IMG/VR virus record: IMGVR_UViG_3300030118_003002
Location: 32,235-96,234 of that record
Source: a virus
Direction: 5' to 3' (one strand)
Length of the DNA: 64,000 nt
Shown here: positions 27,645-36,099 of the stretch, piece after piece
Position numbering within the stretch: the stretch's first letter is position 1
How the letters are laid out: every line of letters starts with the position of its first letter
Program-made: the position numbers and the translations under genes
The notes under the pieces: generated by a model
Seen by the model: only the letters and a program-made list of their open reading frames with translations
Told to the model about the DNA's origin: nothing
The model's database searches: none

Positions 27645-27955
27645 TCTTCTTCACCACTGATGTTAACCCATCCCTTATTCATATCAGCATCAATATATGT
27701 CCAAATATGATTCTTATGGAATTCCATTAAGTCTTTGTAAGAATTACCTTTCTTACCCCAATAAACTCCCTTCTTTGGATTAGTAGTATTTTTATCATTA
27801 GGGTGTTTTGACATATGCCTTCGCTTTCTTTCACTTAGAGTTATTCTAGTGACTGCCTTAGCATCCGATTCGCCATATTGTGTTTCTTTATTGAACGGCT
27901 TTCCTTTGTATTGTCTAATTGCATTATTTCCACTTTTAATTTTTCTAAATCTCAT
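27641..27955 (-). CDS. Hypothetical basic protein
   Basis: Coupled operon gene. Confidence 0.5.
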   Translation of the reverse strand: MRFRKIKSGNNAIRQYKGKPFNKETQYGESDAKAVTRITLSERKRRHMSKHPNDKNTTNPKKGVYWGKKGNSYKDLMEFHKNHIWTYIDADMNKGWVNISGEEE

Positions 27956-28497
27956 TCTTCTTCATCTCCTTTTCTAACCCAAACTTGGGTTCTTTCATAT
28001 TCATGGTTACGGTATATATCTAATAGATAAGGTTCTTTTTGACTCCAAGAACCATAATGCCCATCTCCACCTAACACATAAGCAGTCTTCATTAATGGTT
28101 GCCAAATACTAACTGTTCTAATATCAGTTCCACTGAAATAAGCACTACCGAATGGGTGTGTGTGAATCCAGCACTTAATCGGCAATTTCATTCCAACAGG
28201 GTCAATTTGAAAATCAACATAACCGGCTGAACCTGACGAAATATGAATAGCATCATTAGAATCAATAACAACTTGAACCTCTAAACCATTCAGTATTTCT
28301 GTTGAAGCAAACCAAATATGTTCAAATAAATCTTTTATTTCCATACCTTGTTTATAATAAGCATCAATATGATTCTCCGCTTCTGCTCTTGCTATTTCTA
28401 AATCAGTTTCTAAATCAACCTTACAATCACACTTACCACCATAATATACTAAATTACCACAATCCATGCACTGTTCCGCACTCCAATTTTTTCCCAT
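27952..28497 (-). CDS. JAB/MPN+ (JAMM) metallo-isopeptidase
   Basis: Catalytic E (GLEV) followed by WIHTHPFGSAYFSGTD = HxH-x7-S-x2-D. Confidence 0.85.
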   Translation of the reverse strand: MGKNWSAEQCMDCGNLVYYGGKCDCKVDLETDLEIARAEAENHIDAYYKQGMEIKDLFEHIWFASTEILNGLEVQVVIDSNDAIHISSGSAGYVDFQIDPVGMKLPIKCWIHTHPFGSAYFSGTDIRTVSIWQPLMKTAYVLGGDGHYGSWSQKEPYLLDIYRNHEYERTQVWVRKGDEEE

Positions 28498-29591: not shown

Positions 29592-30152
29592 CTATACATT
29601 AATTACCATAAAGGATTTTACATCTTCTTTGTTAAACCATCTTTGAATCCATTGTGCGCCAATACCTGCAATAACAACTTGCATGAAATGAACGCCACTA
29701 TTACTTCCATCCCATGAATCTCCTTGACAAGAAAATGAACCATCTGGCCCTGCTAATAAAGAATCATACATTTTAGGGTCTGCATCAGAAGTAACAAAAG
29801 CCCCATTACGACCTTGCGCTCTTAAATCCAACCATTTAATATTTGAATTATACAATGTTCTTCTAACTGATAAATTATCAACACAACATACAACTAAATC
29901 ATATCCTTGCATTTGTTTAGCAGTTAGGATAGGAAACTTGCTTGCATTATTAACACTATTATATCGAGCATTCATCCTACTTACTTTGTGAAAATTAACA
30001 TCTTCTTCTGTAAAGTTTTGATATGTTAAATTCTTAGTTTCGACCTTATCGGGGTCTGCTACTGAAATATCATACATTCCTACTTTATCTAATAGTGGCA
30101 CTAGGAAACTCCCAATACCACCTACTCCTATAATCAATATTTTTCTTTTCAT
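29592..30152 (-). CDS. ThiF/MoeB-family E1-like Ubl-activating enzyme
   Basis: IIGVGGIGS, DPDKVETKNLTYQ, DLVVCCVDN..R, WLD, SFSCQ; start 30152 forms an ATGA overlap. Confidence 0.88.
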   Translation of the reverse strand: MKRKILIIGVGGIGSFLVPLLDKVGMYDISVADPDKVETKNLTYQNFTEEDVNFHKVSRMNARYNSVNNASKFPILTAKQMQGYDLVVCCVDNLSVRRTLYNSNIKWLDLRAQGRNGAFVTSDADPKMYDSLLAGPDGSFSCQGDSWDGSNSGVHFMQVVIAGIGAQWIQRWFNKEDVKSFMVINV

Positions 30153-30784
30153 TCTAATCTCTCCAATTTTGCATTCCATTTTTTATTATAATTATCTATT
30201 TCTTCGTTGTATTTGTTTTTGTAGTGGTCTTTAGGCCACCACTTTGGCATTCTTTTTGCCCTCCATTCAGCAAACCTCCATTTACCTTGAAGGTAATAGT
30301 GTCTGTAACTATTAATTACGAAGTCCCAATCGGGAATCCTGTTATCTTTAACTAATCTATACTTATCATCCATAGCAATAGTTACAGGTGTAGCAAACGA
30401 CCAATTAGAATCTTCATCAATCGTATATGCTATATCTAGTATTCTAGATTGCGAACCATGAACCTTACCGTAGCGATAGGTATATTCTTCACATAATGCT
30501 TTACCATGTTCATATAACCATCGAGTATTATGAGGGTTCTGTCTAGCCCATATTGTTGAAGGATGATTCAACATAGCAGGTTTCATTAGTCTTGAATTAA
30601 TATCTCTATGAAACTGCTTTACTTGTGCTAAAGTAGGTTCTTCACCATAATGTTCAATGTAGTCAAAATACAAAACATTTGTATGTAACATTTGACAAGT
30701 TTCCGTTGGCATTTTAACTATGTGTTTGTCTAACATTTCTAGTGCCGCTTCTTGCGGATTTCTTGATAGTGCAAATATATTCAC
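30149..30784 (-). CDS. Pyrimidine-dimer DNA glycosylase (DenV)-like protein
   Basis: MNIFAL...DKHIVKMPTETCQML, NHPSTIW, EEYTYRYGKVH. Confidence 0.75.
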   Translation of the reverse strand: MNIFALSRNPQEAALEMLDKHIVKMPTETCQMLHTNVLYFDYIEHYGEEPTLAQVKQFHRDINSRLMKPAMLNHPSTIWARQNPHNTRWLYEHGKALCEEYTYRYGKVHGSQSRILDIAYTIDEDSNWSFATPVTIAMDDKYRLVKDNRIPDWDFVINSYRHYYLQGKWRFAEWRAKRMPKWWPKDHYKNKYNEEIDNYNKKWNAKLERLE

Positions 30785-30916: not shown

Positions 30917-31825
30917 CTATGCTCGCTTGTCGGTATTACATCTCTCATTCTTATTGTCATTTATATCACCATATTCTATTATATCTCGCCCTTTAATTTC
31001 GGACATTCTATTAAATCCTAACATTTGGATTAATTTTTTACTTGTCTTTCCTATTGCTGATAAGGAAATATCTGTGCTTTCAGAAATATCATTCTTAGTT
31101 ACACCATAATATCTAAACATATTTGTCGCCACCCAGCATACACTTGCGTAATATGCCTTTGATTTATGATAACAATGGTCTTCTATGATAGGTTCTAACT
31201 TTAACATCAAATCCATAGCATTAGAATAAAACATCACATCATCTGTTATTCTAGAACAGGTCTGCTTTAACATAAAAGAAGGGTCTGCTCCGTAAAGTAT
31301 ATTCTTACTCTTAAAGTGGTGAATCATTTTACGCACTAATCTATTCACTACTTTAGTTGAACATGAATATTCAGAACATAATTCTTTCATAGGAACAGGT
31401 GTTCTATTTTCTTTCAGAACATAAAAGACAACAGCAGTGCATCTAGCCTCTAGTTTGATTTTACCAAACAAACCTTTCTTCTGTGCTTCTAAGTAACATT
31501 CCTTAACTCTATCTTTAAGAGGGTGGTTTATTTGAATAGAAGATAGAATCATATTACAGGTCTGCAAACCAGCAGTAATATGTCTAGGAATAACATTATT
31601 GTTTCCTCTCCTATTAAACTTAAATGAACCCTTTCCTGTTATTATAGAACCCAATTCTCCTCTTTCAGCAGAATGAACAACCTTTCCGTCATCTATCATT
31701 CTGACACTTTCTTCAAACAAATCTGTTACGACCACTAATCCGCAATCGCTACATTCTGTTTCTCCTAGTCTTTCATTATAATTAAAGACTAAACAACCAC
31801 ATTCACCGCATTTCATCAAAATCAA
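30917..31825 (-). CDS. tfb: Transcription factor B (TFB/TFIIB)-like protein
   Basis: N-terminal CGECG...GETECSDCGLVV zinc ribbon plus two cyclin-like helical repeats. Confidence 0.8.
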   Translation of the reverse strand: MILMKCGECGCLVFNYNERLGETECSDCGLVVVTDLFEESVRMIDDGKVVHSAERGELGSIITGKGSFKFNRRGNNNVIPRHITAGLQTCNMILSSIQINHPLKDRVKECYLEAQKKGLFGKIKLEARCTAVVFYVLKENRTPVPMKELCSEYSCSTKVVNRLVRKMIHHFKSKNILYGADPSFMLKQTCSRITDDVMFYSNAMDLMLKLEPIIEDHCYHKSKAYYASVCWVATNMFRYYGVTKNDISESTDISLSAIGKTSKKLIQMLGFNRMSEIKGRDIIEYGDINDNKNERCNTDKRA

Positions 31826-33053
31826 CTCTTATACTATTTTCATTATTACATATATACCTTTTAATCGTGCTAACTATTTTTACTGTTAAAGTATCATTAA
31901 GAAGTGCTAATGCTCTTGCTACAAATTGGTCGCCTAAAGAAGAACCGCCAGACATATTATCAATACAAATTGGTCCTTTCCATTGAGGTTCATTAGTTGG
32001 TTTTGGCGGTAATTTAATTTCTTCTTCAGAACCATTATTAATAGCATCAATATTAATTCCAAAACATTCTTCTTCCCACTTCTCAATTTTTTGTGCGAAG
32101 TGTTCATCAGTATCGGGTGTTGAATAAACAAATGTCGAAACCATCTGAATATCTGATTTGAATTTAGTGTTCGTAAGTTTCCAATCCCAGCCTTTTCCAC
32201 GAACATACATGGCTGATACTTCTTTATCATCATCGTAAATGACTTTGATTCTATCAGGATATTTTTCTTCTGTTTCTTTAACTAATAACTTAGCCCTATC
32301 TTCAACAATATCCTGTTGTCTATTTTGTTTTAGAAATTCAATCATTAGTTTTCTATCTGAAACTTTTGGTTTAACTCCTACTGTTCTTTCATAAAGAATT
32401 TCAGGAGAACAAAACATCCATTTTTTACTTCTCTTTTTACCATGAAGATAAAAAGCGCAAAAGGATTCTAATTCTTTATTAGTCATAGTTCCCCAAACTC
32501 CATCACTAACCTCAATCGCAACTTCATTATCGCTAATTTGCTGACAATTCAATCTAACATTAGTTTTCTGAAAATCATCGAAGAAATGGAATGGCACTCT
32601 ATTCTCTAAACAATACTTTACATCTTCGGGAATACTTAGAGTAGCATACAATCCTTTCATTAGTTTAGCCACATCTTTTTCAAAACATGACTTGAAAGTA
32701 ACTCTAGCCAAAGCAGAAGCAATAGTATGCAAACTTTCTGTTTTACCATTAAGAGTATATCTGCTACCCTTTTTTCCTAATGCTATCAAACAACCTCCAA
32801 TATCAATAACTTCGTTAAAGTCCCTTGAAGGTAAGTTCATATATCTATAATGTCTAGTATAATATCCTCGTCTTGAGGATTTTAAGTTGCTAGAAAAGAA
32901 AGCCGTAATAGCCGAATGAACGGGGTCTTTTGCATTTCTATTAGATTGAATAGAAACATCGTGTGGCGTTTTAATCAAATTACTTCTAATCGTTGTTCTC
33001 CAATGTTGTTGGGAATCATCAGGTCTTTTTATTCTTATTTTTAATTCATTCAT
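31803..33053 (-). CDS. Unknown protein with candidate C-terminal E2/UBC-like active-site motif
   Basis: WKGPICIDNM...GDQFVARALALLND resembles the E2 G-x-I-C-L-D motif plus following helix. Confidence 0.4.
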   Translation of the reverse strand: MNELKIRIKRPDDSQQHWRTTIRSNLIKTPHDVSIQSNRNAKDPVHSAITAFFSSNLKSSRRGYYTRHYRYMNLPSRDFNEVIDIGGCLIALGKKGSRYTLNGKTESLHTIASALARVTFKSCFEKDVAKLMKGLYATLSIPEDVKYCLENRVPFHFFDDFQKTNVRLNCQQISDNEVAIEVSDGVWGTMTNKELESFCAFYLHGKKRSKKWMFCSPEILYERTVGVKPKVSDRKLMIEFLKQNRQQDIVEDRAKLLVKETEEKYPDRIKVIYDDDKEVSAMYVRGKGWDWKLTNTKFKSDIQMVSTFVYSTPDTDEHFAQKIEKWEEECFGINIDAINNGSEEEIKLPPKPTNEPQWKGPICIDNMSGGSSLGDQFVARALALLNDTLTVKIVSTIKRYICNNENSIRVDFDEMR

Positions 33054-33221: not shown

Positions 33222-33566
33222 TCATTTATACCACCCTTTCATCATATTATAAATATAATTATTATAGAAATCGGTTTGGTTTTTATTATGGTATTGCAGG
33301 GCTTCATGTCTTTCTGTGAATGCTTTTCTGGCATAGTCAGTAAAGCCTGTTTCCACCGCTTCTTCTATTTCCCATAGTATTATTTTAACAGTTTGCCAAA
33401 GTCTATACTTTTTATCTGTTTCATCTTCCAAACCTGCACAAGCGTCAAGTGCTAATTTAATTTTATTTTTCGCAGAATTAGACCATACATCATCATAAGA
33501 AATAATGACTCTTACAAAGTCATTAAAACTCAAATGACGGATAGGCCGAATCCTACGAGTTTTCAT
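33222..33566 (-). CDS. Hypothetical protein
   Basis: RBS-preceded ORF in operon. Confidence 0.5.
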   Translation of the reverse strand: MKTRRIRPIRHLSFNDFVRVIISYDDVWSNSAKNKIKLALDACAGLEDETDKKYRLWQTVKIILWEIEEAVETGFTDYARKAFTERHEALQYHNKNQTDFYNNYIYNMMKGWYK

Positions 33567-33574
33567 CTAATCAC

Positions 33575-35446
33575 CTAGATTTCACAAGCCCCGCCAGCAC
33601 AAGCCAATTCACCTGTTAAGTTAGTATCGTCTTGTTCTTCGGTAATTTTAGTCAAATCAATCTTAGTTAAGGTTAACATCATTTCATCATATGTCTCCTT
33701 ATCTATTGTTTCAAATGGTGCTTGTTTGTATGTTCCTCCATCATAAGGCAATACAGACAAACCATTGTAGTAGTGTCTATTCATCCATAGCCATTCACCA
33801 ACATCATCCCATTCATCATCTTTTACAGATATTGTTGCTGATACATTATGGCTATTCAAACCATCAACATGGCCTGTTCTAACCCAACGGATGCTGAAAT
33901 TCTTAACACGCTCTAATAAATCAAATACTGATTCATGTCGTGTAATGGCATCATCGGGAGACTTTTGAGGAATAGAAATAACTGCCTGTTCCTCCGGATT
34001 AAAGTATTCATCTTCAACCAATTCAGGATGATTAGATGATAGATAAGAATAGATTGCTTCATTTTTACCTACTCTAATTCTTCGAATGTAATAATTATCG
34101 TGCCAAGCATGAATACCGCTACTTGTTCCTAAAACAAGAGAAGTAGTTCCAGCAGGTTTTACACAAGTAATTCTAGCCGCAGGTTTTACACCAATGATTT
34201 TAGAAATCCTCTTGTTTTCCTGTTTAGCAGCAAACGAAGCCATTTCCAAATCTAAAGGTTCAACAACATTAGAAGCAATACCTGTCATAGATACACCGAG
34301 CAAAGAATCCTTTTCAGTATTCTTTTTCCATATTTCTCTAAGGTAATGGAAATCAGTATAACCTGCTTGAAGCGTTCCTATGAATGAAGCCGCTTTTACT
34401 CTTGCTTCTAAATCTGCTTGGTCTGTAATATCAGAAGCATTCACCTCTGTTAGATTACAAAATTGATAAGGCCGTAAAGCAATTTCACAACAAGGATTTG
34501 TTCCCCAATCTTTGTCATTACTAAAATAAACTGCTGGTTCACCACTACCACTATGTTGTATTCTTTCCCATAGACCCATAAAGAAATCTTTAGTTACTCT
34601 ATGTCTAAGAATAACTGCTGAATTATTTGCACGACCTCTTTGTGGATTATTTTCCCACCAATTACCGGACTTACAACTAATCATTTTAGAATCATCTGCA
34701 CTAAATAAACTAATCATGGCGGCTCTCCTAATACCACCTGCTAATACTGCATCTGCTAAATAACACATAATATCATGTGCTTCAATTGAATCTAATTTAG
34801 AGCCATTATTTTTATTTTGGAGCATTCCTTCTATTTTAACTAAACATTCTCTTAATGGCTGAAAACCGGGTGCTTTTCCACCACTAGTTCTTAATAGGCT
34901 TCCTTTTGGTCTAATATCAGAATAATCAAAAATAGGACTACTACTCCTAATTCCGGTATAACACTCCAAAAGGATTTTAATTGAATCAGCCCATCCTTCA
35001 ATAGAATCGCTAATAAGATACCTGCGTTTTCTTTCGGAATTAGGCTGAATGATTTCCGGTAATTGCTCAATATGATGCCGTTGAACCGAATATCCAACCC
35101 CCGTTCCACCGAGAAGTAAGAACATAGCCTCGCTAAAAGATAAAAGGGAATCAATAGGCATATAAGCACAATTATAAACCCTATTTGGACTAATTTCGAT
35201 AGGTTTGCCCCCAAATTGCATAGAGCGCATTGAAGGGAGAATTTTCTTTGTTTTGACGAATTTTTCATAAATTTCACCTATTTCTTCTGTTAATTCTGGA
35301 TATTTTTTAATATGCATATTTCTGTTTCTTTCGACTATTTCATTCCAAGTTTCTCTTCTTTTCTTTGCTGGTAAATACCTTGCATATTTCATATGCACTG
35401 TAATATCAGACAATGTTTCTATTGCTGTATTTGACATCTTTAACAC
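33575..35446 (-). CDS. nrdJ: Class II (AdoCbl-dependent) ribonucleotide reductase
   Basis: NPCCEI, VKPAGTTS, GGIRRAA, C-terminal CAGGACEI. Confidence 0.9.
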   Translation of the reverse strand: MLKMSNTAIETLSDITVHMKYARYLPAKKRRETWNEIVERNRNMHIKKYPELTEEIGEIYEKFVKTKKILPSMRSMQFGGKPIEISPNRVYNCAYMPIDSLLSFSEAMFLLLGGTGVGYSVQRHHIEQLPEIIQPNSERKRRYLISDSIEGWADSIKILLECYTGIRSSSPIFDYSDIRPKGSLLRTSGGKAPGFQPLRECLVKIEGMLQNKNNGSKLDSIEAHDIMCYLADAVLAGGIRRAAMISLFSADDSKMISCKSGNWWENNPQRGRANNSAVILRHRVTKDFFMGLWERIQHSGSGEPAVYFSNDKDWGTNPCCEIALRPYQFCNLTEVNASDITDQADLEARVKAASFIGTLQAGYTDFHYLREIWKKNTEKDSLLGVSMTGIASNVVEPLDLEMASFAAKQENKRISKIIGVKPAARITCVKPAGTTSLVLGTSSGIHAWHDNYYIRRIRVGKNEAIYSYLSSNHPELVEDEYFNPEEQAVISIPQKSPDDAITRHESVFDLLERVKNFSIRWVRTGHVDGLNSHNVSATISVKDDEWDDVGEWLWMNRHYYNGLSVLPYDGGTYKQAPFETIDKETYDEMMLTLTKIDLTKITEEQDDTNLTGELACAGGACEI

Positions 35447-35820
35447 CTATATTTGCTGGCTTTAGGTAATTCAAATAGAGTCGAAAAGGATGAAAGCCAC
35501 TCACCTTTTTTGCTAATTACCCACTCTTTCTCAATGACAAATTCCCATTCGTCAAAGTTATTAACTGCGAAAGGATATTCTTCTAATAAAATACTTACAG
35601 AAGAATATTCCTTATCCTTGAATAGAATCTTTGTTTCACCCGAAGCGTATATTTGGCCGTATTTACCACGACCAATAACATAACCTTCGGGATAGAAGTC
35701 CGGTGTAAAAACCGCTACTTCATCACGGATGAATGGTTTTGTCAAGTTCCAACCATTCAGTTCAAATAAAATTTTAAGAGCATCGGGAGACATAAAATGT
35801 TTCAAATTCATATTAACCAC
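35440..35820 (-). CDS. Hypothetical protein
   Basis: Operon position. Confidence 0.5.
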   Translation of the reverse strand: MVNMNLKHFMSPDALKILFELNGWNLTKPFIRDEVAVFTPDFYPEGYVIGRGKYGQIYASGETKILFKDKEYSSVSILLEEYPFAVNNFDEWEFVIEKEWVISKKGEWLSSFSTLFELPKASKYRC

Positions 35821-35898: not shown

Positions 35899-36099
35899 TC
35901 AACCGCCAACGATTGCTGGCGTTAAATCAACTGACTCAACAGTGTCCCAATTGATACCTGCTATTTCTTCTCTAGCCATCATTTCACCATTGATGAAAAC
36001 CCAATGTGTAGGGTGTGTATCAATTTGCTCAATGACTTCTTCGGAAGCCATAACTAGTTCTGTGTGTCCTGTTTCGTTCAAAATTGTTAACTTAATCAT
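35899..36099 (-). CDS. Ubiquitin-like beta-grasp protein (ThiS/MoaD/SAMP-like)
   Basis: 66 aa; MIKLTI strand, VFINGE, C-terminal VDLTPAIVGG. Confidence 0.82.
   Translation of the reverse strand: MIKLTILNETGHTELVMASEEVIEQIDTHPTHWVFINGEMMAREEIAGINWDTVESVDLTPAIVGG

Follow-up and report, generated by a model that had tools for sequence, protein, structure and literature searches.

E2 enzymes were long regarded as a hallmark of eukaryotes that had a few scattered forerunners in bacteria and archaea, and the bacterial E2 systems now known (CBASS, Bil, Bub) are anti-phage defenses. Some bacterial E2-like proteins are without the classical His, keep the Cys and are encoded beside E1, JAB and ubiquitin-like protein (Ubl) genes (PMC1779556). 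In archaea, conjugation by the SAMP/UbaA system runs without any E2 (PMC4895103, PMC4443979). E1-like genes, previously undescribed in archaeal viruses, were reported in an Asgard virus, where they were the only genes of this kind and were proposed to hijack the E2 and Ubl of the host (10.1101/2021.07.29.454249). Here we describe E2L, a gene in a 64-kb window (the whole stretch of DNA analyzed) of the virus record IMGVR_UViG_3300030118_003002. E2L lies in a set of viral genes that also includes a Ubl, an E1 activator and a JAB peptidase. We favor, with a probability of about 0.6, the reading that E2L is a sequence-orphan member of the UBC (E2) superfamily, with its C-terminal 173 residues as an E2-like core and Cys363 as the acceptor.

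The record is 96,234 bp long, and the window covers its 3' two-thirds. Among the products encoded in the window are a family-B DNA polymerase, an ATP-dependent ligase, a thermosome-type chaperonin, a UvrD helicase and a class II ribonucleotide reductase (RNR). Tailed viruses of Marine Group II (Poseidoniales) archaea, known as magroviruses, have this gene set (PMC5434244), and we assigned the virus to them on this basis. Its relatives are IMG/VR sequences of ~90-97 kb from marine samples. The archaeal SAMP-UbaA-HvJAMM1 system (PMC4443979, PMC4895103) has in common with the locus a GG-ended Ubl, a JAMM peptidase and a ThiF-type E1 that carries a catalytic Cys, but it has no counterpart of the E2-like protein. 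In contrast to the Asgard virus, the magrovirus encodes the Ubl, E1, JAB and E2-like proteins all by itself.

The fold of the C-terminal domain was examined by structure prediction. A full-length AlphaFold2 model of E2L, built on a 76-sequence alignment, reached a predicted local distance difference test score (pLDDT) of 91.4. Residues 244-416 modeled alone gave a pLDDT of 92.8 and a predicted template modeling score (pTM) of 0.85. The model has five strands (269-273, 279-285, 290-295, 305-311 and 357-362) and then a helix at 373-385, which agrees with an earlier sequence-only reading of this DNA that had described a beta-rich stretch before the Cys and a helix after it. The domain model was aligned to 48,161 PDB chains in an unbiased comparison. 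The best 50 rows all belonged to the UBC superfold (E2s, UEV, RWD, UFC1, FANCL and a CBASS-type bacterial E2, 8hsb_B) and spanned the whole domain. When the top 912 chains from Foldseek were examined again, 50 chains came out, E2 and UEV only, and these were colinear with the model from helix 1 through the last one, with model residues ~1-171 placed onto chain residues ~1-155. The full-length model gave the same E2/UEV picture for residues 247-414.

The alignments of the domain to E2s run end to end and cover 104-120 of ~150 residues, at a root-mean-square deviation of ~4 Å. The N-terminal helix, four-stranded antiparallel sheet, crossover helix and C-terminal helices of the UBC fold are all present in the model. 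Foldseek itself found nothing significant in the PDB for either the full-length or the domain model, and its matches in BFVD were three unnamed relatives, all from the E2L family. Judged from the model, the C-terminal domain is very likely UBC-like, an assignment at the level of fold class only. If the model showed merely a generic alpha/beta arrangement, E2L would be an unrelated Cys-dependent enzyme or structural protein. This is most improbable, as a generic arrangement would not be expected to place 50 of 50 top rows in one superfold, end to end, against so many chains, and the Ubl/E1/JAB context and the place of the Cys are in keeping with an E2.

All 76 homologues, at identities down to 21%, have Cys363, which is one of 8 positions that are invariant throughout the alignment. 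It is the sole conserved Cys column, with any other Cys found in at most 20 of the 76 sequences. The heptapeptide GPICIDN or GSICIDN was found in 78 of 80 loci, and the surrounding residues 357-400 are the best-conserved segment of E2L. Even the most divergent clade retains G-[PS]-I-C-I-D-[QN] ... S-[LI]-G-D-Q ... R-A ... L-N-D. In E2 enzymes, the catalytic Cys is located between strand 4 and the crossover helix. In the model, Cys363 occupies the corresponding loop, after the short strand 357-362 and ten residues ahead of the long helix 373-385. The sequence G-P-I-C-I-D also resembles G-x-[LIVP]-C-[LIV], which we take to be the E2 active-site half-motif of PROSITE PS00183. This half-motif has 1 match in the 21,720 residues of the window's long open stretches, and that match is the Cys363 site.

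Compared with canonical E2s (UQ_con, PF00179; UBE2S, UBE2K, Ubc9, UBC12, Ubc13), E2L shares the order of secondary-structure elements and has a similar Cys context, of the type G-x-I-C-[LI]-D, and an E1 and a GG-ended Ubl are encoded alongside. It differs from them in the absence of sequence or profile similarity, in having an insert of 3-83 residues instead of the HPN motif or any conserved His, and in its 243-residue N-terminal extension, the ~4 Å deviation and its origin in an archaeal virus.

The E2L family is large and comprises at least 429 clusters (90% identity, E<=1e-3), with 167 representatives at 50% identity. The homologues are all metagenomic and mostly 370-480 residues long. Among 185,579 prokaryotic species genomes, a single match was found, on CAXBMW010000043.1 (locus L095), a 1,951-bp contig of a Balneolaceae metagenome-assembled genome. 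This contig is most likely a mis-binned magrovirus fragment, and the family is in effect virus-only. E2L is a core gene of magroviruses. Pfam, PHROGs (by function), NCBIfam and PADLOC hold no family for the protein or its C-terminal domain, and a Pfam scan of 76 family members returned nothing at E<=1. Sequence searches of the PDB with the family profile and with the C-terminal domain alone gave chance amylase matches only. The ESM Atlas gave no usable match for either half of E2L, tblastn of E2L against GenBank phage records gave no match, and the single divergent homologue P0246, used as a scan query, found no viral locus.

Gene context was compared in 80 IMG/VR loci that carry E2L, plus 11 loci of a divergent clade (91 in total). 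The coordinates of the features in the window are listed in Table 1. In the 80 loci the gene order is Ubl - (126-residue gene - RNR) - 114-residue gene - E2L - TFB - ... - E1 - (360-residue gene) - JAB. TFB is directly downstream of E2L in all 80, and in the window its start is overlapped by the last 14-23 nucleotides of the E2L gene. The Ubl was found in 72, the E1 in 77 and the JAB in 75 of these loci, with absences only at contig ends. The sequence-only reading had described an unannotated 416-residue open reading frame between the Ubl and E1 genes, with the Cys motif near its C-terminus and an overlap with the TFB start, and each of these points was confirmed. The identity of TFB was borne out by a profile of 17 homologues, which matched TFIIB in the PDB with an E value of 7.5e-7 and the Pyrococcus TFB core with 2e-4.

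Table 1. Features of the E2L locus, in coordinates of the 64-kb window
Feature	Coordinates	Strand	Remarks
E2L gene	31803..33053	-	416 residues, ATG start; conserved sequence-orphan magrovirus protein
N-terminal region of E2L, three alpha+beta modules	32325..33053	-	residues 1-243
C-terminal domain of E2L, UBC/E2-like fold (AlphaFold2 model)	31806..32324	-	residues 244-416 (173 residues)
Variable insert of E2L, strand 4 to Cys motif, at the HPN place	31986..32120	-	residues 312-356
Cys363 codon, candidate catalytic cysteine	31965..31967	-	within W358-K-G-P-I-C363-I-D-N (W-x-G-P-I-C-I-D-N), encoded at 31956-31982
Ubl	35899..36099	-	open reading frame; 66 residues, ends VGG
Conserved 114-residue protein directly upstream of E2L	33222..33566	-	68/80 loci, 360-810 bp upstream; no family match
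Viral TFB/TFIIB homologue	30917..31825	-	start overlaps E2L end
Minimal E1-like adenylating enzyme, ThiF family	29592..30179	-	PF00899, E 3.8e-17
JAB/JAMM metallopeptidase	27952..28497	-	Prok-JAB, E 2.3e-4; 181 residues

The genes around this set vary. RNR and the 126-residue gene (window positions 33575-35820, minus strand) form a cassette between Ubl and E2L that is present in many genomes and absent from others, as seen by comparing loci L007, L013, L023 and L026. Where the cassette is absent, the Ubl gene lies 0.5-1.2 kb upstream of E2L. In the divergent clade, E2L is 23-30% identical and the order is Ubl ... RNR - 83-residue gene - E2L - short TFB-like zinc-ribbon protein - E1 - JAB, with the start of the TFB-like gene again overlapping the end of E2L. 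The TFB of this clade is shorter, ~200 residues with a zinc ribbon and a helical domain, and keeps the same overlapping position (L087:11196-11801). The Ubl/E2L/TFB/E1/JAB set is retained wherever the flanks reach, despite the variation in the cassette and other genes. To the extent of their flanks, the 80 + 11 loci have the type of neighborhood described for prokaryotic E1/E2/JAB/Ubl operons (Iyer et al. 2006).

One record, IMGVR_UViG_3300021958_000021 (184,733 bp; loci L016 and L065), is about twice the usual magrovirus length and carries two differing whole Ubl-E2L-TFB-E1-JAB clusters. Its E2L copies are 47% and 41% identical to the query. This record may be a chimeric assembly or two related genomes joined.

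The Ubl homologues share an invariant L-T-P-A-I-V-G-G followed by 0-2 variable residues. Most relatives carry 1-2 residues past the GG (among others GGSL, GGSY, GGNL, GGQE and also CY; for example L005:2379-2582 and L014:6945-7148), while 18 of the 72 Ubls, including that of the window, end exactly at GG. A GG followed by 1-2 variable residues is the pattern of a precursor that is trimmed to expose the GG, and the tail looks like a precursor end that the neighboring JAB peptidase would remove. The HxH...SxxD motif of the JAB is intact in 74 of 74 homologues. The E1 probably starts at the ATG at 30152, since most homologues begin with M-[RK]-K-I-L. With 185-195 residues, the viral E1s are shorter than MoeB/ThiF and have neither CxxC zinc pairs nor an extra domain. 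Their invariant motifs are GxGGIGS, CCVDN and S-x-S-C-Q-G, the last of which contains Cys151, ~50 residues past the Mg-binding Asp. This spacing is that of the crossover-loop Cys of MoeB/ThiF/UbaA-type enzymes. The E1 profile matches Cap2, the NEDD8 E1, UBA5, MoeB and Uba4. Going by their conserved motifs, the Ubl, E1 and JAB partners look functional. A complex prediction with two copies of the E1, the Ubl and E2L residues 244-416 scored 0.00 against a mark of 0.32, a result that counts neither way on binding.

The same three partners bear on another explanation, in which the locus would be a sulfur-carrier pathway of the ThiS/MoaD/QbsE/CysO type. The Ubl would then be adenylated by the E1 and form a thiocarboxylate, Cys363 would act as a persulfide or thiol relay, and the JAB would trim the tail or release the product. 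A Ubl with GG and 1-2 further residues, an E1 and a JAB also make up the sulfur-carrier systems QbsE/QbsC/QbsD and CysO/MoeZ/Mec, the viral E1 scores best against ThiF/MoeB models, and a single invariant Cys fits a relay. However, the scanned neighbors include no ThiG, MoaE, CysM, PP-loop thiolase or rhodanese, the Ubl matches no ThiS/MoaD family, and the UBC fold is not generally known as a sulfur relay. We consider a sulfur-carrier role very unlikely.

Since E2L is always found beside a viral Ubl, E1 activator and JAB peptidase, magroviruses probably carry their own protein-tagging cascade. E2L is also the only E2-fold candidate found, because six-frame and genome searches of the 96-kb genome gave no match to UQ_con (PF00179), to Prok-E2_B and Prok-E2_D (PF14461 and PF14460), to RWD or to RING (zf-RING_2). 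The chemical steps of such a cascade, the part played by the N-terminal region and the target are ones that we infer. The JAB would trim Ubl precursors that have 1-2 residues past the GG (the Ubl of this virus already ends there), and it may also reverse conjugation or recycle the Ubl. The minimal ThiF-type E1 would adenylate the C-terminal Gly of the Ubl and then take it onto the invariant crossover-loop Cys151. Transthiolation would move the Ubl from the E1 to Cys363 of E2L, which would attach it to an amine of the target with no separate E3 involved.

The N-terminal 243 residues may serve to dock the E1 or to bind the target, by analogy with E2/E3 hybrids. The hybrids UBE2O and BIRC6 are eukaryotic, far larger and have canonical active sites, whereas the role of the extra region of E2L is a proposal made here. 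Within this region, residues 1-85 are variable and residues 153-244 are well conserved, and its structural matches are weak and mixed. A tandem RWD/UBC array was considered for E2L and dropped because hhalign between its four modules showed no internal repeat. The transcription machinery is a candidate target, since the TFB gene is strictly conserved and overlaps E2L. The chances seem to us about even for the full scheme, a self-contained magrovirus cascade of a Ubl precursor, a 185-residue minimal E1, a JAB and a new E2 family fused to its own targeting region, which would tag host or viral proteins during infection and possibly the transcription machinery.

Several observations weigh against E2L being an E2. 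No sequence or profile method (Pfam, PDB profile, hhalign) ties the family to any E2 family. E2L has no curated-threshold profile match to Pfam UQ_con (PF00179) or the Prok-E2 families, hhalign of the family against one Prok-E2_D protein was not significant, and against a 48-sequence Prok-E2_D alignment the probability was 0.4%. A low-confidence hhalign path put G-P-I-C on the G-x-I-C of Prok-E2_D, which at this probability is not evidence. A search for longer fused forms of E2L found none with E1, Ubl or JAB, which is weak evidence. The placement of Cys363 at the site of the E2 catalytic Cys is a topological one. The HPN motif is absent, as the sequence-only reading had correctly noted, and there is no conserved His column in residues 244-416 of the 76 homologues. 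At the HPN place there is a poorly conserved insert (median 21.5 residues, column occupancy 0.46; 45 residues here). The viral E1 is without a ubiquitin-fold domain or other recognizable E2-docking domain, and the context does not require an E2, because archaeal SAMP/UbaA needs none. The loci also all come from one viral lineage with conserved synteny, so they show persistence of the module, not independent co-occurrence, and the co-occurrence is weak evidence of a functional link.

The HPN motif is also absent in UFC1, ATG3/10, Cap2 and Bil-type E2s. Since E2-like proteins without the His are known (PMC1779556), its loss lowers the case for canonical UQ_con membership and not the case for an E2-like protein.

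Some of these observations would also suit a UBC/RWD-like scaffold to which the Ubl is not transferred. Such a scaffold might, for example, pair with or regulate the co-translated viral TFB or be an assembly factor, and the Ubl, E1 and JAB would then act free of any E2, like SAMP-UbaA-JAMM. Matches of the model to RWD, UEV and FANCL domains are as good as those to true E2s, and the E2L-TFB overlap is the tightest and most constant linkage of the locus (80/80 loci and the divergent clade). The E1 without a docking domain, the lack of a sequence-level E2 signal and the E2-free SAMP conjugation established in archaea (PMC4895103, PMC4443979) point the same way. However, non-catalytic UBC-like domains are without a conserved Cys (PMC1779556), as is the case for RWD, UEV and the FANCL ELF/URD domains, whereas E2L has in Cys363 an invariant and sole conserved one, within its best-conserved segment. 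E2L thus departs from the non-catalytic domains in this respect though its fold matches theirs, and a scaffold gives no reason for the conservation of Cys363. A scaffold role is unlikely in our view. The sequence-only reading had proposed a divergent E2 that completes an E1-E2 cascade. Of this proposal, the modeled UBC-like fold of residues 244-416, the invariant Cys in the GPIC motif and the Ubl/E1/JAB context stand, while a profile link to E2 families and the HPN motif are missing.

With the E2-like reading of E2L preferred, the closest prokaryotic counterparts are Prok-E2 A-E, the Bil '6d' operons, the E2 domain of CBASS Cap2 and PRTRC. E2L is unrelated to these at the profile level (Prok-E2_D being the one tested, with no PADLOC or Pfam match). 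They sit in bacterial defense islands or plasmids, whereas E2L has, unlike them, a large N-terminal region fused to it and belongs to the core genes of a lytic archaeal virus. As a comparator, the conjugative Anabaena cylindrica plasmid pANACY.02 (L082:3420-5828) carries Prok-E2_D, JAB and a ThiF-family E1 in a row, beside a primase-polymerase and DnaN. It is one instance of such triads moving with mobile elements.

The magrovirus and archaeal tailed-virus literature that was searched has no mention of ubiquitin, ThiF or JAB. Within that literature, a virus-borne Ubl/E1/E2-like/JAB set is undescribed in archaeal viruses, and by its sequences the E2-like family is a new one. If E2L is an E2, it adds an E2 family that is invisible to sequence searches, and the four proteins (66, ~186, 416 and 181 residues) would be a compact system for studies of minimal E1-to-E2 transfer. 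The locus would then encode the first complete E1-E2 Ubl cascade from a prokaryotic virus, one that infects hosts with E2-free Ubl systems of their own. Few archaeal viruses of the surface ocean are more abundant than magroviruses. Conjugation machinery would be used here on the side of the virus, and the gene set is conserved throughout an entire order of these abundant marine viruses. The finding bears on the origin of E2-dependent conjugation in the archaeal world.

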